The notes under the pieces were generated by a model, which did not search any database, had not been told where the DNA came from, and saw nothing but the letters and a program-made list of their open reading frames with translations. A DNA stretch of 64,000 bases, from the NCBI GenBank assembly GCA_905233895.1, contig CAJOFL010000019.1, forward strand, positions 1,799 through 65,798, read 5' to 3'. This stretch comes from an uncultured Bacteroidales bacterium (GTDB lineage Bacteria; Bacteroidota; Bacteroidia; Bacteroidales; P3). Every line of letters begins with the position of its first letter. The stretch's first letter is position 1. Shown here one piece after another: positions 74 through 59,072 of the stretch. The position numbers and the translations under genes are program-made.

Positions 74-255
74 AGGCGTTGATCAGGCGTTGGTCAGGCG
101 TTGATCAGGCGAAGGTGGGGTAAACGAATTGAGAATTAGGGTGTTATAACGCTGTTTTTAAAAACTCGTTAAGATTTGTTAACAAAAAAGTGTTAAGAAA
201 TCTTAAATTTAAGACACCTTTGAATGGCGGGGCGGCGGATATTTTTTATTGTATA
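74..255 (+). repeat. Modular intergenic repeat, copy 1 (A-type tail). Three tandem 11-mers AGGCGTTGATC / AGGCGTTGGTC / AGGCGTTGATC, then AGGCGAAGGTGGGGT (core 74-121), then a tail of about 135 bp.
   Basis: Read directly from the sequence. The same core recurs at 9600, 31630, 42167 and 51286, always on the + strand. The tail matches copy 2 over about 180 bp with scattered mismatches. Confidence 0.85.
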
Positions 256-1875: not shown

Positions 1876-3177
1876 ATGTTAGCAGAAGAGACCAGAAAAC
1901 AGATTGCCGATATACTTCACCTCGAGGTGGTACCCGCCATGGGCTGTACCGAACCCGGTGCGGTGGCCCTGTGTGTGGCCAAAGCGCGTGAAGTGCTTGG
2001 CAGTGAACCGGATTCCATAGTGCTCAAGCTGAGCAAAAATGTGTTCAAGAACGTCATGGGCGTGGGTATTCCCGGCACAGGTATGATAGGCCTTCCGATT
2101 GCTGTTGCCATGGCTGTGGTCCATGGCCGTACGGAACGCGGGCTGGAAGTGCTGGCCCAGCAGCCGGCCGAGGTTGAGGATGCTAAGCGCTGGCTCGCCA
2201 ACAAGGCAGGCTGTATCGACATCGGAGTGAAAGAAACTGCCGACAAACTCTATATCGAATGCACCGCCAGGGCGGGGGAAGACCGTGCTGTGGCAGTCAT
2301 CTCGCACCGGCATAACAACTTCGTCTTCGTCTGCCGTAACGACCAGGTGCTCCTCGACCGCAAGCAGGGCCTGTTCCAAGTGGTTGAGGAAGACTCCAAT
2401 CCCGACGAGGAGAACCGTCAGCAGTTGGAACTCACCGCGCGGATGGTATACGACTATGCCACTCTCACTCCGCTGGAAGAGCTTGAATTTATGCGTGATA
2501 CTGTCAAGCTGAATGCTGCTGCATCGGAGGCCGGCCTGGCCGGTATGGGGCTCCATACGGGTGAAATTCTTATGGAACAATCGTCGGGCGACACGGTGCA
2601 TACCGTCGTGGCACGTACAGTGGCCGCCAGCGACGCCCGCATGGATGGCTGCACGTTGCCCGTATATTCAAACTCAGGCTCTGGCAACCAGGGTATTGCC
2701 TGCACGTTGCCACCCTACTACTATGGTACGCTCAAAGGATGTGACGACGAGCGGATACTGCGCGCAGTGGTGATGAGCCACCTGATGTCCATCTATATCA
2801 AGCGAGGAATCGGCCGTTTGAGTGCCCTCTGCGGCATTGTGAACGCCACCATGGGTGTGAGTGCCGCCCTCACATACCTGGAGGGTGGCGGTTTCGAACA
2901 GGTCTGCTACGCTATGAAAAACATGATTAACACCATCGCCGGCATGGTCTGCGACGGTGCTAAACCCAGTTGTGCCCTCAAGATGAGCGTCGGTCTCTAC
3001 TCCGCCTTCGTATGCTCGGAACTGGCAGTACACGACAGGGTTGTGGACCGTACCGACGGTCTCAGCGAAAGCGACATCGACTGCTCTATCCGCAACCTCG
3101 GCCGTCTCGGCAAGGAAGGCATGTGCCAGACCGACGACTGCATCCTCGACATCATGACCCACAAGCGCGATGCCTGA
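1876..3177 (+). CDS. UPF0597 / YhaM-type serine-dehydratase-like protein (L-cysteine desulfidase family)
   Basis: Family N-terminus LEVVPAMGCTEPGAVALCVAKARE. The ATG at 1876 is preferred over the track start at 1825, which overlaps the dnaB 3' end. Confidence 0.75.
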   Translation: MLAEETRKQIADILHLEVVPAMGCTEPGAVALCVAKAREVLGSEPDSIVLKLSKNVFKNVMGVGIPGTGMIGLPIAVAMAVVHGRTERGLEVLAQQPAEVEDAKRWLANKAGCIDIGVKETADKLYIECTARAGEDRAVAVISHRHNNFVFVCRNDQVLLDRKQGLFQVVEEDSNPDEENRQQLELTARMVYDYATLTPLEELEFMRDTVKLNAAASEAGLAGMGLHTGEILMEQSSGDTVHTVVARTVAASDARMDGCTLPVYSNSGSGNQGIACTLPPYYYGTLKGCDDERILRAVVMSHLMSIYIKRGIGRLSALCGIVNATMGVSAALTYLEGGGFEQVCYAMKNMINTIAGMVCDGAKPSCALKMSVGLYSAFVCSELAVHDRVVDRTDGLSESDIDCSIRNLGRLGKEGMCQTDDCILDIMTHKRDA

Positions 3178-3243
3178 GGGGTGCTAACCGCAGGTTGTTG
3201 ATAACTTTATTGTTGCATGGCATCCCGATTGAAAAAAAATATA

Positions 3244-3251
3244 TATTTTTG
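3244..3251 (+). promoter_or_regulatory. Candidate -7 box TATTTTTG upstream of the PUR-like gene
   Basis: Matches TAnnTTTG, 33 nt upstream of the ATG at 3284. No clean -33 TTTG. Confidence 0.4.
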
Positions 3252-3283
3252 CAGCCCGAAATAGTAATAAAACAAACAGAGAA

Positions 3284-3622
3284 ATGGATTACCAAGAGCA
3301 AAGAAAAGAAGAACTCTACAGCCAGGTCATTCCTGCCGGCAAACGTAGATATTTCTTCGATGTGAAAGAGACACGCGGTGGTGACAAGTTTATTACCATT
3401 ACCGAAAGTCGCAAGCTTTTCGACAACAAGACCGGAGAGTTCTACATCGACAAAAACAAGATGTTCCTCTACAAGGAAGACTTCGAGAAATTCCGCAAGG
3501 GGCTTGAGAATGCCCTTTCGTTTATTGAAACCGGTGTGGAGCCTGAGCCCGTCGTTCCCGACGACTTTTTCCGTCGCGAAGACACCGATGCCCGCCTCGA
3601 TGAGATAGATTTCAAGTTCTAA
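3284..3622 (+). CDS. PUR-alpha-like nucleic-acid-binding protein (DUF3276 family)
   Basis: 112 aa. The motif AGKRRYFFDVKETRGGDKFITITESRK is typical of the Bacteroidota PUR-like family. Confidence 0.7.
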   Translation: MDYQEQRKEELYSQVIPAGKRRYFFDVKETRGGDKFITITESRKLFDNKTGEFYIDKNKMFLYKEDFEKFRKGLENALSFIETGVEPEPVVPDDFFRREDTDARLDEIDFKF

Positions 3623-3635
3623 CCGCCCGACCGAT

Positions 3636-4406
3636 ATGGGAAAAATAATTGCAATAGCCAACCAGAAAGGCGGCGTGGGCAAGACTACGACAGCCGTCAA
3701 CCTCTCGGCTTCGCTTGCCGTGCTCGAGAAGAAGGTTCTCTTGGTGGATTGTGACCCGCAGGCCAACGCCACCTCCGGTCTCGGCATCGACCCCGACAGC
3801 CTAGAGAAGAGCGTCTACGAATGCATCCTCGGCCAGGCCAATGTCGCCGACATCATTGTCGAGACCGACACGCCCAACCTCGACCTTGTTCCAACCCGCA
3901 TCGACCTTGTCGGTGCCGAGGTGGAACTTATCAACGAGAAGGGTCGCGAAAGTTTCCTTGCTCGAGCCCTTGATACAGTCAAGGATCGCTATGATTTTGT
4001 CATTATAGACTGCTCGCCCTCGCTCGGACTTATAACCATCAACGCCCTTACGGCTGCCGACTCGGTGATTATCCCTATTCAGAGCGAGTACTTCGCCCTC
4101 GAAGGGCTCGGCAAACTGCTCAATACTGTGCGTATTGTGCAGACCCGTCTTAACCCGCGCCTCTCAATAGAGGGCCTGCTCATCACCATGTACGATAACC
4201 GTCTGCGCCTGGCTCGCCAGGTGGTGGAGGATGTGCGTGGCCATTTCAAGGACATGGTGTTCGATACCCTTATCTTCCGCAACACCAAATTGGCCGAGGC
4301 TCCTTCCTATGGCAAGAGTATCATTATGCATGATGTCGCTTCGACTGGTGCTGTCAACTATCTCAACCTTGCCCAGGAAATCCTGCGGCGTAACAAAATG
4401 TTGTAA
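3636..4406 (+). CDS. parA: Chromosome partitioning ATPase ParA/Soj
   Basis: Deviant Walker A NQKGGVGKTTTAVNL, and family-typical sequence along the full length. Confidence 0.95.
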   Translation: MGKIIAIANQKGGVGKTTTAVNLSASLAVLEKKVLLVDCDPQANATSGLGIDPDSLEKSVYECILGQANVADIIVETDTPNLDLVPTRIDLVGAEVELINEKGRESFLARALDTVKDRYDFVIIDCSPSLGLITINALTAADSVIIPIQSEYFALEGLGKLLNTVRIVQTRLNPRLSIEGLLITMYDNRLRLARQVVEDVRGHFKDMVFDTLIFRNTKLAEAPSYGKSIIMHDVASTGAVNYLNLAQEILRRNKML

Positions 4407-4412
4407 AGACCT

Positions 4413-5288
4413 ATGGCAATCAAAAAGACAGGCGGACTGGGCCGCGGACTGGGCTCCATACTTCCCGACATCGACCTCGATGCCGCCAAAGGAGGCACAG
4501 TTGCCGCCGCCATCAGCGAGATACCCCTGGCCAAAATAACGGCCAACCCTTACCAGCCCCGCAAGGAGTTCGATGAGGAAGCCCTTGACGAGTTATCGCA
4601 GAGCATCCGCCAGCAGGGCGTCATAACCCCTATCACTGTGCGCCGTATGCCCGACGGCACCTACCAGATTATAGCCGGTGAGCGGCGTGTACGCGCTTCG
4701 CGTATGGCCGGTCTCAAGGAAATTCCGGCCTATATCCGTGTTGCTACCGACACGCAGATGATGGAGATGGCCCTTATTGAGAATATCCAGCGTTCCGACC
4801 TCAATGCGATGGAGGTGGCGTTGGGATACAAGGCCCTACTTGAGGAGTGCCGTCTCACTCACGACCAGCTTAGCGAAAGGGTGGGGAAGAACCGTTCCAC
4901 CATTACCAACTACCTCCGTCTGCTCAACCTCCCTGCCGAGACTCAGTTGGCTTTGAGCACTGATAAGATTAGCATGGCACATGCGCGTGCGTTGGCTGGC
5001 GTAGAGGATGTTGAGCGGCATCTGGAGATATTGCACCTCGTTATCGACCGTGGTCTCTCGGTCCACCAGACCGAGCAGATGGTGAAAACCGCCAAGCAGC
5101 CTGTGGCCAGGCCGGTGCAGCGACGTGGCGACCTGCCCAAGCAGCATACCGACGCCCGCGACCGTCTCAAGCAGCGCCTGCAGTCGGTGGTGGAAATCAA
5201 GCGTTCGCAGCGCGGCAAAGGCACTCTGACCATCGCCTTCAATTCCGATGCCGACTTCGAGCGCATAATGAAATTGCTGGAGAAGTGA
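4413..5288 (+). CDS. parB: Chromosome partitioning protein ParB/Spo0J
   Basis: ParB box IAGERRVRASRMAGL, an HTH region, and position immediately after parA. Confidence 0.95.
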   Translation: MAIKKTGGLGRGLGSILPDIDLDAAKGGTVAAAISEIPLAKITANPYQPRKEFDEEALDELSQSIRQQGVITPITVRRMPDGTYQIIAGERRVRASRMAGLKEIPAYIRVATDTQMMEMALIENIQRSDLNAMEVALGYKALLEECRLTHDQLSERVGKNRSTITNYLRLLNLPAETQLALSTDKISMAHARALAGVEDVERHLEILHLVIDRGLSVHQTEQMVKTAKQPVARPVQRRGDLPKQHTDARDRLKQRLQSVVEIKRSQRGKGTLTIAFNSDADFERIMKLLEK

Positions 5289-5851: not shown

Positions 5852-6542
5852 ATGATCAAACATCTTCTTTTCCTGCAGGCCGACCCGGCCACAACCATCG
5901 ACACCCTTGCTGGCGCCGTAACCACCTCGTCGCCCGAGCGCGTCACCCTCTGGGATATGGCCCTCAACGGCGGCTGGATTATGCTTCTGCTGGCCCTGCT
6001 ACTGGTGCTGGCAATCTACATCTTCATCGAGCGCTACCTCACCCTCAACGGTGCCTTGAAGGGCAAGGAGGACAGTGAGTTTATGGAGCGCATCCGCCAG
6101 TATGTCCATGAGGGCAATGTCGATGGTGCGCGCCAGCTGGCCAAAGAGACCGCCACCCCGCTTGGCCGTATGATAAGCAAGGGCTTCTCGCGCCTGGGCC
6201 GTCCGTTGCCCGACATCCAGGCCGCTATAGAGAACGAAGGCCAACTTGAAGTGGCCAACCTCGAGAAGCATGTCTCGCTTGTGGCTACCGTGGCCTCGCT
6301 CGGCCCGATGATTGGTTTCCTCGGTACCGTGGTGGGTATGAGCCTATGCTGGCAACAACATCGACATTCAGATGCTCGCCTCGGGTATCTACACCGCTAT
6401 GGTGACAACCGTGGGTGGCCTTATCGTCGGTATCGTGTGCTACTTCCTCAACAACCTGCTGGTCAACCGTATCAACAAGGTCGTTTTCGAGCTTGAGGTG
6501 CGCGCCAACGAGTTTATGGACCTCCTGCACGAGCCGGCATAA
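5852..6542 (+). pseudogene. exbB: MotA/TolQ/ExbB proton-channel protein, frame-disrupted at about 6341
   Basis: The frame from 5852 is family-like up to LGPMIGFLGTVVGM (6340). It then becomes unrelated sequence ending at 6496. The frame from 6342 gives AYAGNNIDIQMLASGIYTAMVTTVGGLIVGIVCYF...EFMDLLHEPA with a stop at 6540-6542. Total span is 691 nt (3n+1). Confidence 0.8.
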
Positions 6543-6597
6543 TGCCTGATTGCCTTGCCCTAAAAGTCCTTAAAGTCCTTAATGCCTTTAATGTACT

Positions 6598-7014
6598 ATG
6601 ATTAGAAGTCAAAATAAAATAAAGGTAGAGACCAACTCGTCGAGCATGAGCGACCTGGTGTTCCTGTTGCTTATCTTCTTCATGATAACGTCGACGCTCA
6701 TCAGCCCCAACGCCGTCAAACTGCTGCTGCCCGAGAGCAACAGCAAGACGATGGCCCGCGAGACGGTTACGGTCTATATCGACGAGAACCATAATTTCTT
6801 TGTCGACAACGACGTGCCTATAGCGGTCGACGAACTGGAGTCGTTTATTCGCACCAGTATCGGCACCGAGGTTGACGATGCCTGTGTCACCCTGAGGGCC
6901 GACAAGAATGTGCCGGTGCAGGATGTGGTGCAGGTGATTGATGCCGTCAACAGCATCAATGCCTCGACAGGCGCGAAACACAAGGTTATCCTCGCAACAT
7001 CACCCAAGCAATGA
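6598..7014 (+). CDS. exbD: Biopolymer transport protein ExbD/TolR
   Basis: 138 aa. Motif SSMSDLVFLLLIFFMITST plus an ExbD periplasmic domain. Lies between exbB and tonB. Confidence 0.9.
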   Translation: MIRSQNKIKVETNSSSMSDLVFLLLIFFMITSTLISPNAVKLLLPESNSKTMARETVTVYIDENHNFFVDNDVPIAVDELESFIRTSIGTEVDDACVTLRADKNVPVQDVVQVIDAVNSINASTGAKHKVILATSPKQ

Positions 7015-7735
7015 ACAACAAGTTTATATCGGGTATATGCACCGCGGTAATCATGCTTCTGGTTGCCCTGGTGCTCATATCCTTCGGTTATGACCCGCCC
7101 GACCCGCCGATACCCGAAGAGGGTGTCGAGGTGAATATCGGCAACAGCGACTTCGGCAGTGGCGACGACCCTCAGCCGGCCAGTGAGCCGGTGCAGCAGA
7201 CGGCTGCCGCAAGCCCCAATCGTATTGCCACCCAGAACAGCGAGCCCACTCCGTCGCTCGACGCCAGTCAGAACCAGGGCAATACCGTGGCTCCGCAGCC
7301 TGCCGAGCAGCCTGTGGCCATGCCCAAAGAGCCGGAAATCAACCGCAATGCCCTCTTCCCCGGCAGGCGCAACCAATCGAGCGGAAGCGGCAGCCAGGGG
7401 CAGTCGACCGGCAGTGGCGACCAAGGGAAGCCCAATGGTACGCAGACTAGCAACAACTACAACGGCAACGGTGGCGGCAACGGCAACTTCTCGCTTGCCG
7501 GCCGCAGCAGTGTGGCTCTCCCGCGTCCGGAGTATAGCTCGAACAATCAGGGCACCGTGGTGGTGTCGATTTGGGTCGACCGTCAGGGTAAGGTGACGCG
7601 CGCCGAGTACAAAAAATTCTTGGAGATGACATCGTCAGCCAGGCCATAAGCGCAGCCCGCAAGGCCCGCTTCAACGCCGATGCCGCCGCTCCTGAGGAAC
7701 AGAAGGGCACCATCACTTATATCTTCAAGATATGA
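7011..7735 (+). pseudogene. tonB: Energy transducer TonB-family protein, frameshifted at an A6 run (7611-7616)
   Basis: N-terminal TM segment, Pro/Gly/Ser/Asn-rich linker, then the start of the TonB C-domain GTVVVSIWVDRQGKVTRAEY. The in-frame stop is at 7647. After the A run, another frame reads KILGDDIVSQAISAARKARFNADAAAPEEQKGTITYIFKI with a stop at 7733-7735. Span is 725 nt (3n+2). Confidence 0.75.
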
Positions 7736-8103
7736 GGCTCGACAAGTACCTCTGGGCCGTGCGCCTCTACAAGACACGTTCTCTCGCAGCCGAGGCCTGC
7801 CAATGTGGCAAGGTTACCATGACGGCCGACGGACGTGAACTTAAGCCTGCGCACGACGTGAAGGTTGGCGAGCGCTATAGCCTCAATATCGACCAGCTTC
7901 ACAAGGAGGTAGAGGTACTTGCATTGCCGCCCAACCGCGTGGGAGCACCGCTGGTGCAGGGCTTCATGATTGACCGTACCCCCCAGGAGGAATACGAGCG
8001 CATACAGATGGCGCGCCAGTATGCCTTCGAGAAACGCGACCGTGGAGTGGGTCGCCCCACCAAGCGCGACCGCCGCGACATAGAGCGTTTCAAATACGAA
8101 TAA
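7732..8103 (+). CDS. hslR: S4-domain RNA-binding heat-shock protein 15 (HslR-like)
   Basis: MRLDKYLWAVRLYKTRSLA S4 motif, 123 aa. ATGA overlap with the tonB stop in the shifted frame. Confidence 0.85.
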   Translation: MRLDKYLWAVRLYKTRSLAAEACQCGKVTMTADGRELKPAHDVKVGERYSLNIDQLHKEVEVLALPPNRVGAPLVQGFMIDRTPQEEYERIQMARQYAFEKRDRGVGRPTKRDRRDIERFKYE

Positions 8104-8178
8104 AAGGTAATTTTCCGAAAAAATAAATATTTTTCCTGGAAAGATTGCAATAAATCAATTCTTCGCAGTACAAATACA

Positions 8179-8736
8179 TTGAACTCGAGCCGAGTGGAAG
8201 AGAAAGAAATAGTAGAGGCCGTGCTGGCCGGCAAGACCGAGCTTTACGCCGAGATTGTCAAACGCTATCAGCAGATAGTGGCAAACCTGACTTACAAGCT
8301 CTGTGGCAACAAACTGGAAGTGGAGGAAGTGACCCAGCAGGTCTTCGTCGAGCTCTATACCGCCCTGCCGCGATTCCGCTTCGACTCGAAGTTGAGCTCT
8401 TTCATCTACAGCATCACCGTCAACGTCGTCTGCAAGATGATGGGCCGGCAGCGCCGGTTCGTCTCCTCCGACAGACAAGATGACGACGACTACCGCCCCG
8501 AGACGCCCTCGCCCGACCTCAACGTGGAGCAGCAGATTATCCGCCAGGAACAGCTCGCCCAGCTCCGCGCAGCCATCGGACGGCTCAAGAGCGAACAGCG
8601 CACCGCGCTGGTGCTCTACACCTACGAGGACTTCTCCTACCTGCAGATAGCCGAGGTGATGCAGTGCAGTCTGAGCAAAGTGGAAAGCCTGATTTTCCGC
8701 GCAAAGAAGAACTTGGCAAAAGAACTGAAACAATGA
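8179..8736 (+). CDS. RNA polymerase ECF-type sigma-70 factor
   Basis: Region 2 (QQVFVELYTALPRFRFDSKLSSFIYSITVN) and region 4 (ALVLYTYEDFSYLQIAEVMQCSLSKVESLIFRAKKNL). The start is ambiguous: TTG at 8179 or GTG at 8194. Confidence 0.9.
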   Translation: MNSSRVEEKEIVEAVLAGKTELYAEIVKRYQQIVANLTYKLCGNKLEVEEVTQQVFVELYTALPRFRFDSKLSSFIYSITVNVVCKMMGRQRRFVSSDRQDDDDYRPETPSPDLNVEQQIIRQEQLAQLRAAIGRLKSEQRTALVLYTYEDFSYLQIAEVMQCSLSKVESLIFRAKKNLAKELKQ

Positions 8737-9053
8737 CAATAGACGAAGGATTGAACGAGCTGGCTCGCCAGCAGTACCCACATCAGGTGGATGTCGTACA
8801 GGCCGTTATGGCCCAGGTGCGGCAGCATCCTTACCTGCAGCCCGTGCGCCGAGTGCAGACCTGGCAGCGGGTCGTGTCGTCTTCGGTGGCCGCCGTCCTG
8901 CTGGCACTGGTCGTCAGCGTCACGGTGGTGCGCATCCAGGCCTACAACGAGGCCGGCATCGGCTCGATGATAGCGCAGGTGCAGGACTACAACTACTACG
9001 GCTCGGTAGAGGAGGCTGCCATGAACCCCATTGAATACATCTACGAAGAATAA
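8733..9053 (+). CDS. Putative anti-sigma factor (single-pass membrane protein)
   Basis: ATGA overlap with the sigma gene stop. Short cytoplasmic N-terminus followed by a TM segment VAAVLLALVVSVTVV. Function is inferred from context only. Confidence 0.5.
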   Translation: MTIDEGLNELARQQYPHQVDVVQAVMAQVRQHPYLQPVRRVQTWQRVVSSSVAAVLLALVVSVTVVRIQAYNEAGIGSMIAQVQDYNYYGSVEEAAMNPIEYIYEE

Positions 9054-9060
9054 GAACGCT

Positions 9061-9501
9061 ATGAATATCAAGAGTATAATACTTGCCGTCGCCCTGGTCG
9101 CAGTGGCTGTTCCCTGTGCCGCCCAGCGCGATTCCCGTGCGCGGCATGACGAACGCAAGCCCAAGGAGATAACCGAGATGGTGGGCGACCTCAGCCAGTC
9201 GCAGAAGAAACGTCTCGACGATATCACCGACGCCTCGAAGCAGCGCGTCGCCGCCCTTCGTGCCCAGAAGAAGGCTGTGCGCGACAGCATCAACACCTAT
9301 ATGCGGCTCGACGGCGACCAGTCGGCCGTCCTCTTCCCGCTCTTCGACCGCGAAGCACAGCTGCAGCGCGAAATCTCGCGCGAGATGTACACCACCAAGG
9401 TACGGGTCGACGAGGTGCTCACCCCCGAACAGCGCAAACAACTGCGCCAGGCATCGGACGCTAAGCGGAGCGACCCGCCCAAGAAGAAACTCAAAAAGTA
9501 G
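9061..9501 (+). CDS. Periplasmic Spy/CpxP-like (LTXXQ-motif) protein
   Basis: Signal peptide MNIKSIILAVALVAVAVPCAAQ, helical charged body, LTPEQRKQL motif. The internal ATG at 9061 is preferred over 9031. Confidence 0.5.
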   Translation: MNIKSIILAVALVAVAVPCAAQRDSRARHDERKPKEITEMVGDLSQSQKKRLDDITDASKQRVAALRAQKKAVRDSINTYMRLDGDQSAVLFPLFDREAQLQREISREMYTTKVRVDEVLTPEQRKQLRQASDAKRSDPPKKKLKK

Positions 9502-9543: not shown

Positions 9544-9599
9544 CATTGGGATACCGGTATTTTATTCAAAACGAAAATTTATTTCTGTAGGGGGAAAGT

Positions 9600-9778
9600 A
9601 GGCGTTGATCAGGCGTTGGTCAGGCGTTGATCAGGCGAAGGTAGGGTAAACGTGTTGTGAATTAGGATGTTATAATGCCATTTTTAAAAACTCATTAAGA
9701 TTTGTTAACGAAAAAGTGTTAAGAAATGTTAAATTTAACACTTCCCACAATGGCTGGGCGGCGGATATATTTTATATA
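9600..9778 (+). repeat. Modular intergenic repeat, copy 2 (A-type tail). Core is 9600-9647.
   Basis: Same unit order as copy 1 (GATC, GGTC, GATC), then AGGCGAAGGTAGGGT. The tail is collinear with 122-255. Confidence 0.85.
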
Positions 9779-9836: not shown

Positions 9837-9867
9837 TTTGCCAGTATAAAAAAAGTTCGTATCTTTG
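9837..9867 (+). promoter_or_regulatory. Bacteroidota sigma-A promoter: -33 TTTG (9837-9840) and -7 TATCTTTG (9860-9867)
   Basis: Both consensus boxes are present with a 19-nt spacer, 44 nt upstream of the ATG at 9911. Confidence 0.75.
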
Positions 9868-9910
9868 CACTCAAATTTGGAATAAATAAAATAAAACTAA
9901 AATAACAACA

Positions 9911-13383: not shown

Positions 13384-13477
13384 ATGCTAATACTGCCTGA
13401 TTTACAATCGGTTGGCGGGTTGTGCATACGCTTAACGGCTGTATGTCAGTTGTTTACGACTATTTGTCCGAGATAAG

Positions 13478-13640
13478 TCCGTGTTAGGTCCGTGTTAGGC
13501 CCGTATTGGAACAGGGTGTGCCCGTACCGATGTCGTACCTGACCCTATGTTATCGCCTTGTTGTCCTTTACCGGTATGATTCATTATCCTTGTTTACCGG
13601 TTACCCGTTTACCGGTAACCTGGTAACCGGTAACTCGCAT
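13478..13640. repeat. Repeat-rich convergent intergenic segment: 11-mer GTCCGTGTTAG x2 plus a degenerate third copy, then four ACCGGT-centred sites
   Basis: 13478-13510 is a tandem array. 13566-13636 contains TTTACCGGT x3 and the perfect palindrome TTACCGGTAA. Confidence 0.7.
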
Positions 13641-18115: not shown

Positions 18116-18928
18116 TTAATGTGTTAGGTAAGTTTCTATTTGGTCGAGCTGGAGGGCTTTGTCGATGGTGTATTGCCCCACCTGTTCGCGGCGTAGGGCC
18201 GAAAGGAAGGCTCCGCTCCCAAGTGCCAGTCCGAAATCGCGGGCAATAGAGCGGATGTATGTGCCCTTTCCGCAGCGGATTCGGAAATCAACCTGTGGAA
18301 GGTGCTCCGGAACGGTACCCTGCGGGTTGTCGTAGAGTTTTGTTTTCTGAGTTTTCTGAATATTCGGATTATTCAGATTATTCGGATTATTCGGATTATT
18401 CAGATTATTCAGACCTTCCCTGAAGGCGGTTATCTCGAAGTTGTAGACTTGCACTGCTTTGGGTTGTATGGTCGCCGTAGAATCGTCGCGACGGGCATAT
18501 TCGTAGGCTCGTTGTCCGTCGACCTTCACGGCGCTGTACATCGGTGGTACCTGCATTATCTCACCTTCGAACCTGCGGCGTATCTCATCAATAAGGATAG
18601 GGTTTATATGTTCGTAGGGATAATAACTGTCGATAGCCTGCTCCAAATCATAGCAGGGGGTTGTGGCACCTAGCACCATAGTTCCGGTGTAAACCTTGTC
18701 ACCGTCCTGAAGTGAAGGTATCTCTTTAGTGGCTTTTCCGATGCATACTAGCAGAAGACCGGTCGCCAGTGGATCGAGAGTACCTGCGTGTCCTATCTTG
18801 AACTTCTTCAGACCATAGGCGTTGCGCACTAAAGCCTTTACCTTGTTTACCGCCTGAAAGGAGGTCCATTGGCGAGGCTTGTCGATGGGCAGCACTATGC
18901 CAGCCTGAAGTTGTTCAAGGGTAATCAC
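18116..18928 (-). CDS. truB: tRNA pseudouridine(55) synthase TruB with a low-complexity loop insertion
   Basis: Motifs [14 protein letters not shown] and [13 protein letters not shown]. The Asn/Pro-rich insert is encoded by 9-bp tandem repeats. Confidence 0.95.
18342..18413. repeat. In-frame 9-bp microsatellites inside truB: GTTTTCTGA x2, then ATTATTC(G/A)G x6
   Basis: Read directly from the sequence. On the minus strand it encodes [24 protein letters not shown]. Confidence 0.9.
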
Positions 18929-19731
18929 AGCACGTAGGGGAGGATAATAGTGGCTATACCCACCACTGCGCAGTAAAGTGCGAACCAGATGAGTTTGCCT
19001 TTCTTGACGATGTTAATCATCCACTTGCATGCCAGACAGCCGCATATAAAGGCGGCCAAGAATCCCACTATGAGCGACAGGGTAGGCAGGCCAGCCATTG
19101 CCTCGGACACTCCCATCTCAGCCATATCCTTTACGTCGAGCAGAGCCTCTCCGAGGATAGGCGGTATCACCATAAGGAACGAGAACTGGGCCAAGCGTTC
19201 CTTCTTGTTGCCAAGAAGGAGTCCAGTGGCGATGGTGCTACCCGAGCGCGAGAGGCCTGGAAGAACGGCCAATGCTTGTGCAATACCTATAATGAATGCA
19301 TGGAGTGGCGAAATGTTCTCACGCTGGCGTGGCTTCGCCCAGTAGCTGAAAGCCAACAGGGTCGCCGTAATCAGCAGGCAGATACCCACTACAAGCAGCC
19401 CGCTTCCGAAGATGGCTTCCACCTTGTCTTTGAAGAAGAGGCCCACGATACCGACGGGAATCATGGAGATGAGGATGTTGACGATATACTTAGTGCCTTC
19501 GTTCCATTTGAACTTGAAGAGGTCAGTGAAAAGCCACACGATTTCGCGCCAGAGTATCACTATGGTGCTCAGTACTGTAGCCACGTGGACAGCCACCGTG
19601 AATGTAAGGTTTTCCTCTCCACTTAGTCCGAAAAGGTTGGCCCCGATAGCCAGATGGCCGCTGGAACTGACTGGTAGATACTCGGTCAAACCTTGTATGA
19701 TGCCGAGTAATAATGCTTCAAACCATTCCAT
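18925..19731 (-). CDS. uppP: Undecaprenyl-diphosphate phosphatase
   Basis: Motifs [11 protein letters not shown] and [11 protein letters not shown]. Polytopic membrane protein, 268 aa. Confidence 0.95.
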
Positions 19732-19734
19732 AGA

Positions 19735-19983
19735 TTACTTCTTCTTCCCTTTGTACATGATAGCCACTATTTCGACTGCGAAGCCGAGTACAATAAGTAT
19801 GGGCGCTACGTAGAGGCGGCGAGTGTCGAACATAGCAGGGTTGAACACATTGGGGTCGTCGGAGCCGCCGCCGGCGAGAAGGATATAGCCTAATGCGAGC
19901 AGTATCAGGCCGACGCCCATGATGATATAGTTGACTTTGTTAAAGGCAAACTGGAAGCCTTTCTTTTCTTCGTTGTTTTCCAT
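19735..19983 (-). CDS. DUF3098-like small membrane protein
   Basis: 82 aa starting at the internal ATG (MENNEEKKGFQFAFNKVNY). Two TM segments. Lies next to ftsX, as is usual in Bacteroidota. Confidence 0.55.
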   Translation of the reverse strand: MENNEEKKGFQFAFNKVNYIIMGVGLILLALGYILLAGGGSDDPNVFNPAMFDTRRLYVAPILIVLGFAVEIVAIMYKGKKK

Positions 19984-19993
19984 TGTAGATTTT

Positions 19994-20848
19994 TTATTGT
20001 TTGTTGATATAACGGCGAACAGTGAAGGCTGTGGAGAGCCACGCAATCACTACGCCTGCGATGATTAATGCCGCGCCAATGGCACCGTACCACATCCAAT
20101 GTTCAGAGGCCAGAAGGTCGAGACCGAACTGGTTGGAGAATACCCAGATGGCAATCAGGGTAAGAATCGATGCCAGCAGTCCGCCCAATGCACCATAGGC
20201 CACGCTGCGCCACAGGAATGGACGAGAGATGAAGGCCATGTCGGCTCCAACGAGGCGCATAGTGCGGATGGTCTCACGCTGACCGTAGATGGCAATACGG
20301 ATGAGCGATGCGATGAGCACCACGGTGATGATGAGCAGCAGCACTACGAAAACGATAAGGAACCAAGTGAGTTTGTAGAATACCTCTCGTAGTTCGTTTA
20401 CCACGTTTTCCTGATAGGCTACGCCGGTCACTCCCTCCATTGCGCTCACTTCGCTGCAGAAACGGTCTAGCACTTGGCTGGAGTTATCGGGCAGAAGGGC
20501 TACATTGAAGTTGACCATCAGTGATGGGTAGAGTGGGTTGTACCCAATAAAACCAACGAAGTCCTCGCCGAGGTCTTCGCTGAATATCTCGGCGGCTTTA
20601 TCGCGAGAAATATAGTCCACATGCTTCACGTAGGTCATCTTTTCAACTTGTCCTTTGAGAGCGAGCGCGAGCGAGTCGCTAACGTCGGGCGAGAGGTCAA
20701 CCTTATAGGTGATGCGTTCCTGTGCGTCGTGGGTGAGGCGGTAGGAGTGGTATTCGAGGGTCAGCAACAAGCCCAGCATGAGCAGCACGAGGGTGATGCC
20801 CAGCACGGTGGCGGTGTGAGTGCCCCAGAGGTTTACCTTGTTCTTCAT
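19994..20848 (-). CDS. ftsX: Cell-division permease-like protein FtsX
   Basis: TM1, a large periplasmic loop, and a C-terminal three-TM FtsX domain. 284 aa. Confidence 0.8.
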   Translation of the reverse strand: MKNKVNLWGTHTATVLGITLVLLMLGLLLTLEYHSYRLTHDAQERITYKVDLSPDVSDSLALALKGQVEKMTYVKHVDYISRDKAAEIFSEDLGEDFVGFIGYNPLYPSLMVNFNVALLPDNSSQVLDRFCSEVSAMEGVTGVAYQENVVNELREVFYKLTWFLIVFVVLLLIITVVLIASLIRIAIYGQRETIRTMRLVGADMAFISRPFLWRSVAYGALGGLLASILTLIAIWVFSNQFGLDLLASEHWMWYGAIGAALIIAGVVIAWLSTAFTVRRYINKQ

Positions 20849-31597: not shown

Positions 31598-31629
31598 ATT
31601 TTTTTTCGAAAAGACCTGTGGTATATGGT

Positions 31630-31724
31630 AGGCGTTGATCAGGCGTTGATCAGGCGTTGGTCAGGCGAAGGTGGGGTTAATCGTCTGGCGTTCTTGTAGT
31701 TATGTGAATTTTAGGCTCATATAT
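31630..31724 (+). repeat. Modular intergenic repeat, copy 3 (B-type tail). Core is 31630-31677.
   Basis: Unit order GATC, GATC, GGTC, then AGGCGAAGGTGGGGT. The tail ...CTGGCGTTCTTGTAGTTATGTGAATTTTAGG resembles copies 4 and 5. Confidence 0.85.
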
Positions 31725-31804
31725 TTTTAATTATCAATAGGTTAGGTGTTTTTGGATTTCTCTGTTCTGTTGCGGCGGTTCCTGTGGGCGGTTCAAAAAA
31801 AATA

Positions 31805-31835
31805 TTTGCCGATTCCAAAAAAGAATGTATCTTTG
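31805..31835 (+). promoter_or_regulatory. Bacteroidota sigma-A promoter: -33 TTTG (31805-31808) and -7 TATCTTTG (31828-31835)
   Basis: Consensus boxes with a 19-nt spacer, 24 nt upstream of the ftcD ATG. Confidence 0.75.
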
Positions 31836-33881: not shown

Positions 33882-33955
33882 GCCGCATTCGTCTAGTGGT
33901 CCAGGACATCTGCCTCTCACGCAGAAGATCATCAGTTCGACTCTGATATGCGGTA
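33882..33955 (+). tRNA. tRNA-Glu (anticodon CUC)
   Basis: Folded by hand. 7-bp acceptor stem (one G-U), 4-bp D stem, 5-bp anticodon stem with loop CT-CTC-AC, 5-bp T stem with TTCGACT loop, discriminator A. No encoded CCA. Confidence 0.92.
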
Positions 33956-33960
33956 CAAAA

Positions 33961-36264: not shown

Positions 36265-36325
36265 TTGACAAAGAGTAAGGTAGTAAAGGAGTAAAGTAGA
36301 AATGCTTTGCTCCTTTTTTGGTTCT

Positions 36326-42068: not shown

Positions 42069-42166
42069 AGGCGAAATTTTTTTATAATAACGAGTGGGGG
42101 TGCGATTTATTGTGCCGCGAGTCATTTTTTGCCTTTTTATTAATCGTGCGCGAGGATGTCGAGGGC

Positions 42167-42260
42167 AGGCGTTGATCAGGCGTTGATCAGGCGTTGATCA
42201 GGCGAAGGTGGGGTCAATTTACTGATAATCTAGCGTTTATGTGAATTTTAACATTATATA
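42167..42260 (+). repeat. Modular intergenic repeat, copy 4 (B-type tail). Core is 42167-42214.
   Basis: All three units are AGGCGTTGATC, followed by AGGCGAAGGTGGGGT. The tail contains GTTTATGTGAATTTTAACATTATATA. Confidence 0.85.
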
Positions 42261-42368
42261 ACATTCATTTACAGTAAGTTGGCATTTAAGCAATTTTTTC
42301 TTATGCGTGTGCAATATTATTAATGGGTCGGCGTTATTATATGGAATTGAACTCAACCCCGACGGCCG

Positions 42369-48804: not shown

Positions 48805-50130
48805 ATGATTATGACCTATCAGGAAACATTGGACTTTATGTTCGCCCAGTTGCCGATGTACCACCGCATCGGCGCTGCGGCATATAAGGCTGATATTCAG
48901 CCTACCATAGACATGATGACCGCCCTTGGTAATCCTGAACGCAAATTCCGTAGCATCCATGTGGCCGGTACCAACGGCAAGGGCTCGGTGTCCCATTTCC
49001 TTGCCTCAATCCTCCAGGAGGCGGGGCTGAAGGTGGGCCTCTACACATCGCCCCATCTGGTCGACTTCCGCGAGCGTATCCGCATCAATGGAGAGATGAT
49101 TCCTGAGGAGGAGGTTACCAGTTTTGTAGCTACCCACTACCAGATGCTTACTACGCACTCGCTCTCTTTTTTCGAGATGACAGTGGGCATGGCTTTCGAC
49201 TTTTTTGCCCGCGAGAAGGTTGATATCGCCGTCATCGAGGTGGGTATGGGCGGAAGGTTGGATAGCACAAATGTTATTAATCCGTTACTTTCAATAATTA
49301 CCAATATTGGTCTGGACCACACGCAGTTCCTTGGCGATACTTTGGAGAAGATTGCTGGCGAGAAGGCCGGCATCATCAAGGATGGTGTTCCGGTGGTGAT
49401 CGGGGAGACTCAACCCGAGACGGCCCCCGTGTTCCTGCGTGTGGCGGAGGAGCACCATGCACCCATCACTTTCGCCGACCAACACTATGTTGTTGACGAC
49501 ATAAGTCGCTATACCACAGAACTTACTGGAGAGTATCAGAAGAAAAATATCGCTACCGTCCTCGAAGCTGTTGAGGTGCTTAAGAGTCTACAAGTCAATG
49601 AGTCAACGAGTCTACAAGTCGGCTCGATTTTCCGAAGTCTTGATGTCTTGTTGACTCCGACGGCTGTACGCCGCGGCCTGGCCTGTGTGGTCAGTAATAC
49701 CCACCTTCACGGGCGCTGGCAAAAGATAGGGGATAGTCCGCTTACTATCTGTGAGACAGCACATAATGAGCCGGGTATCCGTGCTATGCTGCAGGGGGTC
49801 AAAAACACTTCACACAAGGATTTGCACCTTATCTATGGCTGTGTGAACGACAAGGATTTCTGCCATATCCTCCAATTCCTCAACACTCAACTCTCGACCC
49901 TCAACTCCGACCTGAAATGGTATTTCAGTCAACCGTCGGTGCCTCGCGGCCTGCCGGTGACGGAACTTCAGATAGCGGCCAAGGAATTGGGTATCAACGG
50001 TGAATCGTTCCCGAATGTCAATGACGCGATAGCTGCCGCCCGTGCCGCCGCCCATCCGGATGATCTGGTACTGGTTACTGGCAGCATATTTCTCATTGCT
50101 GACGCACTGAACATTAACACAGAACATTAA
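48805..50130 (+). CDS. folC: Bifunctional folylpolyglutamate synthase / dihydrofolate synthase
   Basis: HVAGTNGKGS P-loop, a Mur-ligase middle domain, VTGSIFLIAD near the C-terminus. The start is ATG 48805 or 48811. Confidence 0.92.
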   Translation: MIMTYQETLDFMFAQLPMYHRIGAAAYKADIQPTIDMMTALGNPERKFRSIHVAGTNGKGSVSHFLASILQEAGLKVGLYTSPHLVDFRERIRINGEMIPEEEVTSFVATHYQMLTTHSLSFFEMTVGMAFDFFAREKVDIAVIEVGMGGRLDSTNVINPLLSIITNIGLDHTQFLGDTLEKIAGEKAGIIKDGVPVVIGETQPETAPVFLRVAEEHHAPITFADQHYVVDDISRYTTELTGEYQKKNIATVLEAVEVLKSLQVNESTSLQVGSIFRSLDVLLTPTAVRRGLACVVSNTHLHGRWQKIGDSPLTICETAHNEPGIRAMLQGVKNTSHKDLHLIYGCVNDKDFCHILQFLNTQLSTLNSDLKWYFSQPSVPRGLPVTELQIAAKELGINGESFPNVNDAIAAARAAAHPDDLVLVTGSIFLIADALNINTEH

Positions 50131-50157
50131 CACAGAACATTAAACCACTGAACACTG
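50109..50157. repeat. 13-bp tandem repeat GAACATTAACACA x2 plus degenerate copies, spanning the folC stop
   Basis: Read directly from the sequence. It encodes the folC tail LNINTEH and contains the TAA stop (50128-50130). Confidence 0.85.
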
Positions 50158-51193: not shown

Positions 51194-51285
51194 TTTTGAT
51201 GCCAATTTTTTTCCGGGGGCAAAAAATGAAACTATGCAAACGGCGTTTGCTCCCCTAAAAGGTATTTTTGCCCTTGGTATAGGGT

Positions 51286-51378
51286 AGGCGTTGGTCAGGC
51301 GTTGATCAGGCGTTGATCAGGCGAAGGTGGGTCTAAATGTCTGGAATTCTTGTGGTTATGTTAATTTTAACATTATAA
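51286..51378 (+). repeat. Modular intergenic repeat, copy 5 (B-type tail). Core is 51286-51332.
   Basis: Unit order GGTC, GATC, GATC, then AGGCGAAGGTGGGTC. The tail GTTATGTTAATTTTAACATTATAA ends exactly at the trmO ATG. Confidence 0.85.
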
Positions 51379-53528: not shown

Positions 53529-53900
53529 GAGAGCGGGGGCCATCCTATCGCCCGGCCGCAAGGCTGGGAGGAAAGTCCGGGCAGCACGAGCCACCATGCT
53601 TCCTAACGGGAAGCGGCTATTCGGGTAATCGGATAGTCAGAGAGAGCGCCACAGAAAAGATACCGCCGACAAAAGGCTTCCTTGGCCTAGTCGGTAAGGG
53701 TGAAAACGCGGGGTAAGAGCCCACGACATGACCGGGAGACTGGCATGATGGCAAGCCTCATGGGCTGAAAGACCATGTAAACCGACAGTTGAGGGCAGGC
53801 TCGCCCGACGTCGGAGGGTAGGTTGATTGAGATTGCTGGTGACAGCAACCCTAGATTGATGATAGGACACGACAGAACCCGGCTTACAGGCTCCGCCCTT
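53529..53900 (+). ncRNA. rnpB: RNase P RNA, bacterial type A
   Basis: Universal P4 strands GGAGGAAAGTCCGGGC (5') and ACAGAACCCGGCTTA (3'). P1 pairing of GCGGGGGCC with GGCTCCGC. T-run after the 3' end. Ends are approximate, within about 5 nt. Confidence 0.92.
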
Positions 53901-53915
53901 TTTTTGATTGAAGTG

Positions 53916-56192: not shown

Positions 56193-56911
56193 TGAAATTA
56201 AGCGAAGCGAAATATAATAAAGTGAGCAACATTGAAATTCATAATACTGGTAAAGGGTTACAGCGTGTAGTGGTATACGTTGTGGCTTTCGCTTTTCACT
56301 TTTCGCTTTTCACTTCAGCGTTTGCAGTGGCTCAGACCGACACCACGGCTCTGCGGATTCATAGTTTGCAGCCGATACCCCTTGTGTCTGGTGCTGCTCT
56401 CGGCGGTGCGGGAACGCTGCTCACCTTCCAACCCGAGATAAACCGTCTGGCGGTGAGCCTTCATGACAATGTGGATGCTGCCAACTTTCCTCAAATGTCA
56501 GCCGATGACTATATACAGTATCTCCCGGCGATTGCACCAGTGGCGCTGAATCTCTGCGGACTGCACAGCCGCCATCCTCTTGGTCGGATGATGATGCTCG
56601 AAGGGGGCAGTTACCTCCTCGGAGCAGGGTGGCTCAATGCGTTGAAGTACGGCATCGGAGTCGAGCGGCCCGACAACTCGAGGTTCAACAGTTTCCCGTC
56701 AGGCCACACCTTCGTGGCCTTTACTGGTGCCGAGTTAATACGGCGCGAGTACGGAGAGGAGTACCCATGGGTGGCTGTAGCCGGATATGCTGTAGCCATT
56801 GCGGTGGGAGCCATGCGGATCTACAACGACCGTCACTGGTTGGGCGACGTGCTGGCCGGCGCTGGATTGGGAATCATGAGCGTCACACTGGTATACTGGG
56901 CGCTGGATTAA
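56192..56911 (+). CDS. PAP2-superfamily phosphatase (membrane)
   Basis: Motifs SFPSGHT and MRIYNDRHWLGDVLAG. The start is uncertain: the ATG at 56192 is preferred over 56123, which overlaps comB. Confidence 0.8.
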   Translation: MKLSEAKYNKVSNIEIHNTGKGLQRVVVYVVAFAFHFSLFTSAFAVAQTDTTALRIHSLQPIPLVSGAALGGAGTLLTFQPEINRLAVSLHDNVDAANFPQMSADDYIQYLPAIAPVALNLCGLHSRHPLGRMMMLEGGSYLLGAGWLNALKYGIGVERPDNSRFNSFPSGHTFVAFTGAELIRREYGEEYPWVAVAGYAVAIAVGAMRIYNDRHWLGDVLAGAGLGIMSVTLVYWALD

Positions 56912-56944
56912 AATATGAACTAAGAAATAAGAACTAAGAATAAG

Positions 56945-58645
56945 ATGAAACTTTTTAGCAACATTAAGGGCGATTTGTTCGGCGGCGTGACCGCCGGTAT
57001 CGTAGCGTTGCCGTTGGCACTGGCCTTCGGCATACAGGCCTTCAGCGGCGTGAGCGACCCGCAAGCGGCTTCCATTGGTGCTTACGTGGGCCTCACCGGA
57101 GCTATGCTCCTCGGTTTCTTCGCTGCCCTCTTCGGTGGCACCCACAGCCAGATTTCTGGTCCTACTGGACCGATGACCGTGGTAACTGCCACCCTCGTCA
57201 CTGGTGCGTGGACCGCCTCCAACGGAAGCCTCTCCGAGGTGATGCTCTCCATGGCGCTCGCCGCTATCTTCTGCGGCCTATTCCAGATCCTTTTCGGTCT
57301 CATCAAGTTGGGCAAGTATGTGCGCTACATACCTTATCCAGTCCTCTCGGGATTCATGAGCGGTATCGGCGTCATCATCATCATCCAGCAGCTTTATCCG
57401 CTGGTGGGCGCTAGCAAGGGCGGTCCGATGCTCGGAATGCTGGCGGGTCTGCCCGAAGCCTTTGCCCAAACCAGCCTCACCGCGCTCCTTCTCGGACTCG
57501 GCACGGTGGCCATCGTTTACCTCTTCCCGCTGCTGACCAAGAAGGTTCCCTCCACCCTGGTGGCCCTTATCGTGATGACCGTCGTGTCGCTCTTCATCGA
57601 TATGGACGGTGTGGCCACCATCGGTAAGATTCCGTCGGGCCTCCCGATGCCCTTCTTCGCGAAAGAAGGAGTCACGTTGGCCGGTATCAACTGGGGTACC
57701 GTGCTGGTGGCCGCCCTTATCCCGGGTCTCACTCTCGCCGGTCTGGGTTCTATCGACACGTTGCTCACCTCCGTGGTGGCTGACAATATCACCAAGACCA
57801 AACATAACTCCAACCGCGAGTTGATAGGGCAGGGTATAGGTAACGCCATCGCTGGCCTGTTCTGCGGTCTGCCCGGTGCGGGTGCTACCATGCGCACCGT
57901 GGTCAACGTAAAGAGTGGCGGCCGCACCCAGCTTTCCGGCATGGTCCACGCCCTTCTGCTTCTGGCCATAATGCTCGGCTTGGGTTCGGTGGTGCAGTAT
58001 GTGCCGCTGTCAGTGCTGGCCGGTATCCTTATCACCGTCGGCTGGGGTATCATCGACTTCAAGGGCTTCAAGGACCTGCTCAAGATACCGCGCGCCGACG
58101 CCGTGGTGCTTGTCGTGGTCTTCCTCGTCACCGTCTTCGTCGACCTGCTCACCGCGGTCGGTATTGGTATGGTTATCGCCTGCGTCCTCTTCATGAAGCG
58201 CGCCTCCGACCTCGTCGAGGGCGGCTACAGCAGCCAAGAGATGACCAACTTCGACAAGGAAAGCCCCTGGAGCGACGAGGGTGGAATGCCCGACACCGTG
58301 GCCCACAAGATCTACGTCCAGCGCTTGAACGGCCCCATCTTCTTTGGCACCATCAACAAGTTCAAGGAGGTGATGCAGACCGTTCCCGAGAGTGCACGTA
58401 TAGTCATCATCCGCATGCGTCTGGTGAGCTTTATGGACCAGAGCGGCCTTTACGCTATGGAGGAGGCCATCAAGGACCTCCAGGCGCGTGGCGTCGAGGT
58501 GCTTATGACCATCATCCAACCCCAGCCCATGTACATGCTGACCACCCACAAGGTCATCCCCGGCGTCGTTCCCGAAGACCACACCTTCAAAACCTTCGAA
58601 GAGTGCACTGCATTCCTGAGGAATGAATTGAGAGTTGAGAATTGA
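56945..58645 (+). CDS. SulP-family anion transporter with a C-terminal STAS domain
   Basis: GDLFGGVTAGIVALPLALAFG N-terminus, a polytopic core, and a STAS domain (LNGPIFFG...FMDQSGLYAMEEAIKDLQARGVEV). The last 7 codons lie in the cassette inverted repeat. Confidence 0.93.
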   Translation: MKLFSNIKGDLFGGVTAGIVALPLALAFGIQAFSGVSDPQAASIGAYVGLTGAMLLGFFAALFGGTHSQISGPTGPMTVVTATLVTGAWTASNGSLSEVMLSMALAAIFCGLFQILFGLIKLGKYVRYIPYPVLSGFMSGIGVIIIIQQLYPLVGASKGGPMLGMLAGLPEAFAQTSLTALLLGLGTVAIVYLFPLLTKKVPSTLVALIVMTVVSLFIDMDGVATIGKIPSGLPMPFFAKEGVTLAGINWGTVLVAALIPGLTLAGLGSIDTLLTSVVADNITKTKHNSNRELIGQGIGNAIAGLFCGLPGAGATMRTVVNVKSGGRTQLSGMVHALLLLAIMLGLGSVVQYVPLSVLAGILITVGWGIIDFKGFKDLLKIPRADAVVLVVVFLVTVFVDLLTAVGIGMVIACVLFMKRASDLVEGGYSSQEMTNFDKESPWSDEGGMPDTVAHKIYVQRLNGPIFFGTINKFKEVMQTVPESARIVIIRMRLVSFMDQSGLYAMEEAIKDLQARGVEVLMTIIQPQPMYMLTTHKVIPGVVPEDHTFKTFEECTAFLRNELRVEN

Positions 58646-58652
58646 GAATTAT
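58625..58652. repeat. Left inverted repeat of the four-helix-bundle cassette
   Basis: GAATTGAGAGTTGAGAATTGAGAATTAT. Its reverse complement matches 59031-59060 with one mismatch and one 2-nt indel. Confidence 0.85.
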
Positions 58653-59016
58653 GGACAACGACAAAAATCTCATCGGAGAAAAAAGTATGGATTTCGCAGT
58701 AAGGTGTGTAAATCTTTACAAATATCTTTCTCAGGAAAAGAGCGAATACATCATGAGCAAACAGGTGTGTCGAAGTGGAACCAGTGTGGGTGCCAATATT
58801 AGAGAAAGCCGTAATGCCCAAAGCACATCTGACTTCATCAATAAACTCAATATTGCTCTTAAGGAAGCTGATGAAACTCAGTTCTGGCTGGAGTTGCTGT
58901 ATAGAACACAATATATTGGAGAGAAAGAATTTAATTCAATTAACAATGATATTGACGAGATTATATCAATCTTGACTGCATCAATTAAAACCACTAAGAA
59001 AAAAATAGACAAATAA
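58651..59016 (+). CDS. Four-helix-bundle protein (23S rRNA intervening-sequence protein / Avd-like family)
   Basis: Motifs SKQVCRSGTSVGANIRES, DFINKLNIALKEADETQFWLELL and an EFNSINNDIDEIISIL pattern. Visibly AT-rich compared with the flanking genes. The ATG at 58651 is preferred over the TTG at 58642. Confidence 0.82.
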   Translation: MDNDKNLIGEKSMDFAVRCVNLYKYLSQEKSEYIMSKQVCRSGTSVGANIRESRNAQSTSDFINKLNIALKEADETQFWLELLYRTQYIGEKEFNSINNDIDEIISILTASIKTTKKKIDK

Positions 59017-59030
59017 ATTTAACATGGGTT

Positions 59031-59064: not shown

Positions 59065-59072
59065 TTATAATT

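Follow-up and report, generated by a model that had tools for sequence, protein, structure and literature searches.

The BOX element of Streptococcus pneumoniae is composed of boxA, a repeated boxB and boxC; it is dispersed in intergenic DNA, is non-coding and has no known transposase. Its boxB unit is 45 nt long and variable in number, and the element forms a stable secondary structure. Within the Bacteroidales, the BrickBuilt MITE/minisatellite of Porphyromonas gingivalis begins with a leader, continues with 23-nt bricks that are repeated in tandem in variable number, and closes with a tail; it is always intergenic and has small inverted-repeat ends and measured promoter activity (PMC4596501). 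Direct repeats are also characteristic of OmpR/PhoB-family sites such as those of ArcA, in which two to five of them are set at an 11-bp centre-to-centre spacing (PMC3798270). Finally, intergenic heptamer direct repeats of the TAACTGA type are found in Beggiatoaceae, Cyanobacteria and Bacteroidetes; their 7-nt units usually abut the start codon and are not part of a longer shared element (PMC4679880).

The window analysed here, a stretch of 64,000 nt (64 kb), contains five copies of a repeat of 105-190 nt. CHU_C domains (T9SS) among the encoded proteins and promoter -7 boxes of the form TAnnTTTG point to an uncultured Bacteroidales organism; a red-deer MAG (L001) is among the related contigs, and the GLEN20-2 and WILK20-1 assembly prefixes found on such contigs are taken by us to denote ruminant-gut sets. 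A sequence-only reading of the window had suggested, among other roles, a BOX-like modular repeat. The leader, tandem units, tail and strictly intergenic position agree with that comparison, but the unit number does not vary, being fixed at three perfect copies. The repeat is, like BOX, a modular dispersed intergenic repeat with no coding capacity, although the two belong to different phyla and share no sequence similarity, and BOX folds stably. BrickBuilt is the closest precedent for such a modular build in a Bacteroidales host. With it the element shares a Bacteroidales host, small size, lack of coding capacity, intergenic location, multiple copies, a narrow host range and modularity (PMC4596501), but its units are 11 nt long, its three perfect copies are fixed, and it has neither inverted ends that we could find nor a canonical internal -7 box.

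We searched both strands for the 48-mer core (AGGCGTTG[A/G]TC)x3 + AGGCGAAGGTGGGGT, allowing up to three mismatches. The five occurrences originally described were recovered, starting at 74, 9600, 31630, 42167 and 51286, all on the + strand and with no reverse-complement copy in the window; shuffled sequence gave 0.00 matches. TRF reported a period of 11 and 3.5 copies at each of the five sites. The pattern of GATC and GGTC units proved to be exactly as first given, with GGTC as the second, second, third, no and first unit of copies 1-5, respectively. The three units are part of a longer phased array, since alignment in register reveals about five: a degenerate unit, three perfect units and AGGCGAAGGTG. 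The head of copy 1 (63-121, + strand, as are all those that follow) thus comprises the degenerate unit CGGCGAAAAGT, three units AGGCGTTG[A/G]TC (GATC, GGTC and GATC) and AGGCGAAGGTG-GGGT. The head of copy 2 (9589-9647) has GATC, GGTC and GATC and the last unit GGTAGGGT; that of copy 3 (31619-31677) has GATC, GATC and GGTC; that of copy 4 (42156-42214) has three GATC units; and that of copy 5 (51275-51333) has GGTC, GATC and GATC and ends in GGGTC. Each head unit consists of a heptamer, GGnGTTG, and a 4-nt spacer, and there are three perfect units at all seven loci and on all strain contigs.

The head is far better conserved than what follows it. Cores of paralogs differ at 0-5 of 48 positions, and the next 57 nt are only 51-86% identical, a contrast that is significant (Fisher p < 0.05) for 19 of the 20 pairs of paralogs. 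All substitutions within the three perfect units are exchanges of A and G at unit position 9. They represent at least four independent events, one of which separates L001 from L031 at a single orthologous locus, and position 9 is a purine (R) in every unit type of the wider family.

Beyond the head, the division into two tail subfamilies was confirmed, A comprising copies 1 and 2 and B comprising copies 3, 4 and 5, with tails of 60-130 nt common to the members of each. The subfamily A elements extend over 64-249 and 9590-9775 (186 nt, 88% identity). The tail of copy 1 (122-249, + strand) is AT-rich, contains the inverted repeat TTAAGATTT...AAATCTTAA and ends in GGCGGCGGATATTTTTTAT; that of copy 2 occupies 9648-9775 (+), the whole of this copy being 88% identical to copy 1. 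Subfamily B elements span 31619-31745, 42156-42289 and 51275-51378. Their + strand tails lie at 31678-31745 (copy 3, containing ..CTGGCGTTCTTGTAGTTATGTGAATTTTA..), at 42215-42289 (copy 4, where native upstream sequence conserved in relatives starts at about 42292) and at 51334-51378 (copy 5, adjoining the trmO ATG at 51379). Terminal inverted repeats were not found: the left end (..GGT AGGCGTTGATC..) shows no complementarity to the right ends of the A or B copies. No shared or duplicated sequence is visible in the flanks; the empty sites of relatives are too diverged to give base-exact boundaries.

A 13-mer, GAATTGAGAATTA, is common to the copy 1 tail and the left arm of a different structure at 58626-59058, in which 27-nt inverted repeats enclose a small gene whose product is a four-helix protein of family PF05635 ('23S rRNA intervening-sequence'). 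The two arms (58626-58652 and 59032-59058) are built of heptamers and are 96% complementary. This structure is missing from the syntenic sulfate-transporter/yebC junction of L015 and L019 and therefore looks like an inserted cassette. Close to it, at 59917-61786, the window has several shorter ORFs where L011 has one 2346-aa giant T9SS surface-protein gene (18411-20549+); the region contains internal 600-nt repeats (60735-62600).

All five copies are non-coding and intergenic, as stated in the sequence-only reading, and none of them is overlapped by a gene called on same-species contigs. Three lie in divergent promoter regions: copy 1 between groES and dnaB, copy 3 between a T9SS cargo gene (-) and ftcD (+), and copy 4 between a TonB_C-domain gene (-) and a thioredoxin-like gene (+). 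Copies 2 and 5 are flanked by co-directional genes, with a 232-aa gene downstream of the former and the latter placed between an aldo-keto reductase gene and trmO. The + strand genes downstream of every copy are as first described, but for copies 1, 3 and 4 this says little, the regions being divergent. The groES and dnaB genes are adjacent in the window species and in L027; in L028 they are separated by an insertion of two genes at 6400-9235, one of 474 aa and one of 468 aa, the latter with a Por_Secre_tail domain. In the 104-kb contig L021 of the window species, alaS is represented by two genes (394 and 455 aa; 6562-9203), and in the sister species L027 by a single 865-aa gene (6745-9342); the two-gene form may result from a frameshift or from an assembly error, or the gene may really be split.

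The native promoters lie outside the elements. A -7 box for dnaB (TAatTTTG, 306-313, + strand) is part of a block that is conserved in relatives without the element; that of the 232-aa gene (TAtcTTTG, 9860-9867, +) is 213 nt downstream of the copy 2 head, and that of ftcD (31828-31835, +) is 151 nt downstream of the copy 3 head. Copies 1-3 precede the perfect -7 box of the downstream gene by 150-215 nt, and copy 4 is followed after about 100 nt by a conserved block of native upstream sequence. The spacing between element and downstream -7 box is variable, ranging from about 100 nt to 213 nt. No copy contains a perfect TAnnTTTG box on either strand, and an internal promoter of the canonical Bacteroidetes type was dropped from consideration. 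Two similar motifs precede elements on the + strand: TAtcTTTG at 24-31, 43 nt upstream of the copy 1 core and pointing into the element, and TAttTTTG at 51263-51270, 16 nt upstream of the copy 5 core. Given the latter motif and the fact that the reductase gene and trmO abut without a spacer in the relative L019, copy 5 would lie within a transcript, as a leader or intercistronic segment, and is almost certainly transcribed in the sense direction. Elsewhere in the window, the RNase P RNA (class A, 232 bits; 53531-53902) and a tRNA-Glu(CTC) (33882-33956) share with protein genes the promoter consensus AAAAAGxxxGTAxxTTTGCAC, located upstream of each.

The common orientation of the copies carries little weight. 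Five of five on one strand corresponds to p = 0.06 (two-sided), and a fixed orientation, as implied by the sequence-only reading, was not borne out in relatives, where the L033 array is inverted at the PFK/nuclease locus and the L015 copy is antisense to both of its neighbours. An explanation based on replication strand was set aside too, as GC skew within the window merely tracks gene strand.

Contigs of the same species (98.6-100% identity, from at least four other samples) keep copies 1, 2, 4 and 5 in place with the A/G pattern unchanged. We then compared four of the five sites, those of copies 1, 2, 4 and 5, with sister species of conserved gene order: L027 (DnaB 94% identical), L028-L030 (DnaB 92%), L015-L018 (TrmO 78%) and L019-L020 (TrmO 80%). 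Pattern search and nhmmer --max found the element missing at all four sites in these species, in which the native promoter blocks downstream of the element sites are nevertheless conserved. Absence from syntenic intergenic regions had itself been named as the outcome that would speak against a functional, position-specific element, and a regulatory role upstream of promoters is left unsupported by orthologous promoters without the element and by variable spacing and orientation. Absence at the syntenic sites indicates lineage-specific gain, and the non-repetitive tails common to unlinked loci require copying. Judging from these comparisons, the element behaves like a lineage-specific mobile or fast-evolving repeat and not like a conserved gene switch; its copies would have been gained after the split from the sister species and fixed before the strains diverged.

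The family extends beyond the window. A sixth locus, of B type, lies between the genes for PFK and a secreted nuclease in L001 and L031. The latter contig belongs to the assembly that also includes the 104-kb contig holding the window and, in view of shared samples and matching GC content, is probably from the same organism. More diverged arrays were detected only by relaxed periodic patterns or a head HMM and were aligned in register. These are an inverted array in the PFK/nuclease region of L033 (9794-9851, minus strand, unit CGGCGTTGGTA x4.4, E = 8e-12), an array in the groES-side divergent region of L028 (5978-6032, unit AGGAGTTGAGT x3.6, E = 3e-5) and a copy in L015 that is homologous to the L028 copy (18424-18595, minus strand, E = 1e-43) and lies between yebC and a giant gene; no further match was found by these means in ~230 kb. 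The sister-species arrays have 3.6-4.4 units and keep GGnGTTG at 11-nt spacing, and the 4-nt spacer varies between unit types (ATCA, GTAC, AGTA). In a third species, L034, another 11-mer array with the unit AGCGAAGAACG is located upstream of the nuclease gene. Altogether, 11-mer arrays occupy the PFK/nuclease intergenic region of three species, among which they differ in unit or orientation, and the groES-side region of two. Of eight related arrays whose position is resolved, six are in divergent promoter regions. That arrays recur in these two divergent regions from one species to another may reflect either hot spots or selection.

The element also behaves as a multi-copy sequence in assemblies, with contigs L012, L014, L026, L030 and L032 ending within elements. 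All 13 contigs with the nuclease (P0253) begin just upstream of the nuclease gene, and two of the three nuclease contigs shown (L034 and L035) start inside the 11-mer array. An exact-pattern scan of GTDB genomes returned one true relative (L001) and three chance high-GC matches, a JGI metagenome scan nothing but chance high-GC matches, and neither a viral contig scan nor blastn against plasmids and phages gave a match. The unit sequence was not found in the literature. On the six or seven loci that these contigs (~230 kb) provide, the family is a genuine modular intergenic repeat, more than chance, and previously undescribed.

Several known classes were considered and rejected. As the sequence-only reading had noted, the element is neither a CRISPR array, which has 24-48 nt repeats and unique spacers where the 11-nt units are contiguous, nor a stable hairpin, RNA folding of both strands giving z-scores of -1.3 to -3.0 and inconsistent structures. 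REP/BIME sequences, which are GC-rich palindromes of 20-40 nt, do not fit direct repeats with weak folds; a G-quadruplex does not fit GG runs 9 nt apart; DnaA or parS sites were dropped because the units do not resemble their consensus; and integrase arm-site scars do not fit five copies in 64 kb, none at tRNA genes. The element has the small size, non-coding nature and multiple copies of a MITE, and four syntenic sites are empty in sister species, but for a classical MITE the terminal inverted repeats are missing.

With moderate confidence, we read the five copies as a small, non-coding, non-autonomous modular dispersed repeat confined to one uncultured ruminant-gut Bacteroidales lineage, with a head that is probably a protein-binding array. 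Each copy combines an almost constant head, made up of some five 11-nt units, with an AT-rich, rapidly diverging tail of which there are at least two kinds, and copies would accumulate in permissive intergenic DNA, especially in divergent promoter regions upstream of native promoters. With the head constant and the tails in decay, the functional part seems to be the head, and we propose that protein binding to the head keeps it constant. By analogy with known operator arrays, the head is probably a protein-binding array, with 11-nt units that would set the heptamers on roughly one helix face for a putative protein bound head to tail; candidates for this protein are a DNA-binding protein of the host and the enzyme responsible for copying the element. 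Some observations weigh against the dispersed repeat. Terminal inverted repeats and a target-site duplication were not found on the copies, nor were a transposase or integrase and an autonomous parent in the ~230 kb examined; the genome-collection scan added one related locus, for six or seven in all; the recurrent arrays at PFK/nuclease (three species) and on the groES side (two) could mean in-situ evolution, or selection for arrays there, in place of insertion; and gene conversion could also produce the conservation of the head.

An unlikely alternative is that the heads form a host cis-regulatory operator array controlling the adjacent, often divergent promoters, the repeat being the vehicle that distributes the sites. 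The element has the spacing of OmpR/PhoB-type sites, namely GGnGTTG plus 4 nt in four to five phased units of three unit types, and shares with such operators the 11-bp direct repeats, a conserved part of 6-7 bp and a variable spacer (PMC3798270). The resemblance to ArcA, PhoB and OmpR sites in the phased heptamer and spacer (three to five units), the retention of GGnGTTG in three unit types with different spacers, the preference for divergent promoter regions and the strong conservation of the head would all be expected of operators. However, OmpR/PhoB sites are degenerate, locus-specific, fixed relative to promoters and conserved with the regulon, whereas the arrays of the element are near-identical between loci, reside on a dispersed repeat and are missing from orthologous promoters. 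In fact, four orthologous promoters in sister species lack the array, which moreover lies at no constant distance from the -7 box (about 100-213 nt) and in no fixed orientation. In addition, the neighbours (dnaB/groES, ftcD, the thioredoxin-like and TonB_C-domain genes, trmO, PFK/nuclease) have no obvious common theme, and a cognate regulator was not identified.

A more elaborate version of this idea, which we regard as distinctly unlikely, makes the heads putative phased operator arrays for a dedicated protein binding DNA head to tail. Their carrier would be an element without terminal inverted repeats, spreading from one of its ends in a manner not described before and seeding divergent promoter regions by preference. 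It would be a mobile regulatory or architectural module rewiring or insulating promoters in rumen Bacteroidales, with the units GGCGTTGATC, GGCGTTGGTA and GGAGTTGAGT co-evolving with their binder by species.

Alternatively, the arrays might be hypervariable structural tandem repeats made in place by slippage or unequal exchange, and homogenised there, with an 11-nt period that would persist through its match to the helical repeat, by which it would give curvature or accommodate supercoiling in divergent promoter regions. Short tandem arrays with periods of 5-15 nt abound between the genes of the window and of its relatives, the PFK/nuclease region has three different 11-mer units in three species, and a separate 11-mer array is found at 13466-13504. 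But production in place cannot explain five loci with the same 48-nt head and a homologous non-repetitive tail of 45-130 nt, and the presence of three units in all copies and strains gives no sign of slippage, which makes this origin improbable. The separate array, GTCCGTGTTAG x3.5, is unrelated to the element and shares a convergent intergenic region with a 15-mer array, GTTTACCGGTAACCC x2.9 (13592-13634); it shows that arrays of 11-nt period are not unique to the element family.

The short intergenic tandem repeats of the window have periods of 5-14 nt and 2-6 copies, and many end a few bases from a start codon (50105-50143, 56911-56945, 59034-59066, 59860-59885, 36273-36296, 18361-18410 and 9884-9905). 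Similar repeats occur in relatives, at L028 18984-19014 (TAAGGAGT x3.9), L033 9683-9716 (CCGGTATA x4.2) and L033 612-647. Those of the window resemble the heptamer repeats of Beggiatoaceae, Cyanobacteria and Bacteroidetes (PMC4679880). The element itself is like the TAACTGA-type repeats in having short intergenic tandem units, mostly forward relative to the downstream gene, and in its patchy phylogeny, with relatives that have shorter, repeat-free spacers (PMC4679880). It differs from them in its period of 11 nt and its shared tails of 45-130 nt, and only copy 5 abuts a start codon.

A function at the RNA level, as a leader or small RNA, appears quite improbable. According to this explanation, the G/U-rich + strand would fold by G-U pairs or bind an RNA-binding protein and affect the downstream mRNA. 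The position of copy 5, between a -7-box-like motif and the trmO start codon at what is an operon junction in relatives, would suit such a role, and GGCGUU and UGAUCA are self-complementary on the + strand only, with A-to-G changes that keep wobble pairing. On the other hand, copies 1-4 lie upstream of native promoters, the fold z-scores are weak (-1.4 to -2.0), and the L015 copy is antisense to both neighbouring genes. Rfam gave no match over the elements at the gathering threshold, and scans by E-value gave only noise (E > 1). Folding revealed no common structure. A riboswitch or small RNA was dropped.

The remaining issue is the GATC sites, on which the sequence-only reading had centred the element. 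The window is strongly depleted in GATC (56 observed versus 223 expected, O/E 0.25), yet 11 of the 56 sites fall in the five cores. Values of 0.19-0.50 were obtained across the clade (L015, L019, L021, L027 and L028, of which L021 is the same-species locus), which suggests a long-standing restriction pressure on GATC; in the stretches examined, no GATC-specific restriction-modification genes were seen. CTAG is likewise scarce in the window and these five contigs (O/E 0.08-0.37), and L031 encodes an EcoRI-type methylase with a GmrSD/HNH gene at 2441-4799. The view of the element as built on GATC was not sustained. GATC is specific to the window species and absent from the L033, L028 and L015 arrays, where GTAC or no 4-bp palindrome stands in its place and GGnGTTG persists at 11-nt spacing. 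Since unit position 9 is a purine in all unit types, GGTC is a tolerated variant and no evidence on methylation. The GATC sites are best explained as incidental to the window species' version of the unit, and the GATC richness of the cores fits a unit in which GATC merely chances to be present and whose constancy has a different cause. Epigenetic switches of the pap and agn43 type provide a precedent for methylation-dependent reading of GATC. A switch of this kind, with three phased GATC sites read by a methylation-dependent binder, would suit both the concentration of GATC in the cores and the fact that every substitution in the three perfect units hits the A of GATC, but it is highly improbable given the GATC-free sister arrays, the purine at that position in all unit types, by which GGTC is not the loss of a needed site, and a region examined in which no Dam-like methyltransferase was seen.

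Short-read contigs of these organisms break at the element, so that genome bins are fragmented precisely at promoter regions and too few copies are counted. That GATC sites are concentrated in the elements of a GATC-depleted genome poses a small puzzle about restriction avoidance. In other respects, the family is a further addition to the many bacterial interspersed repeats. If protein does bind to the head as an array, the family would offer a clean natural example of a single operator-like module that has been copied to many promoters of an uncultured gut lineage, and its species-specific unit variants could be used to find the binding protein by co-variation.
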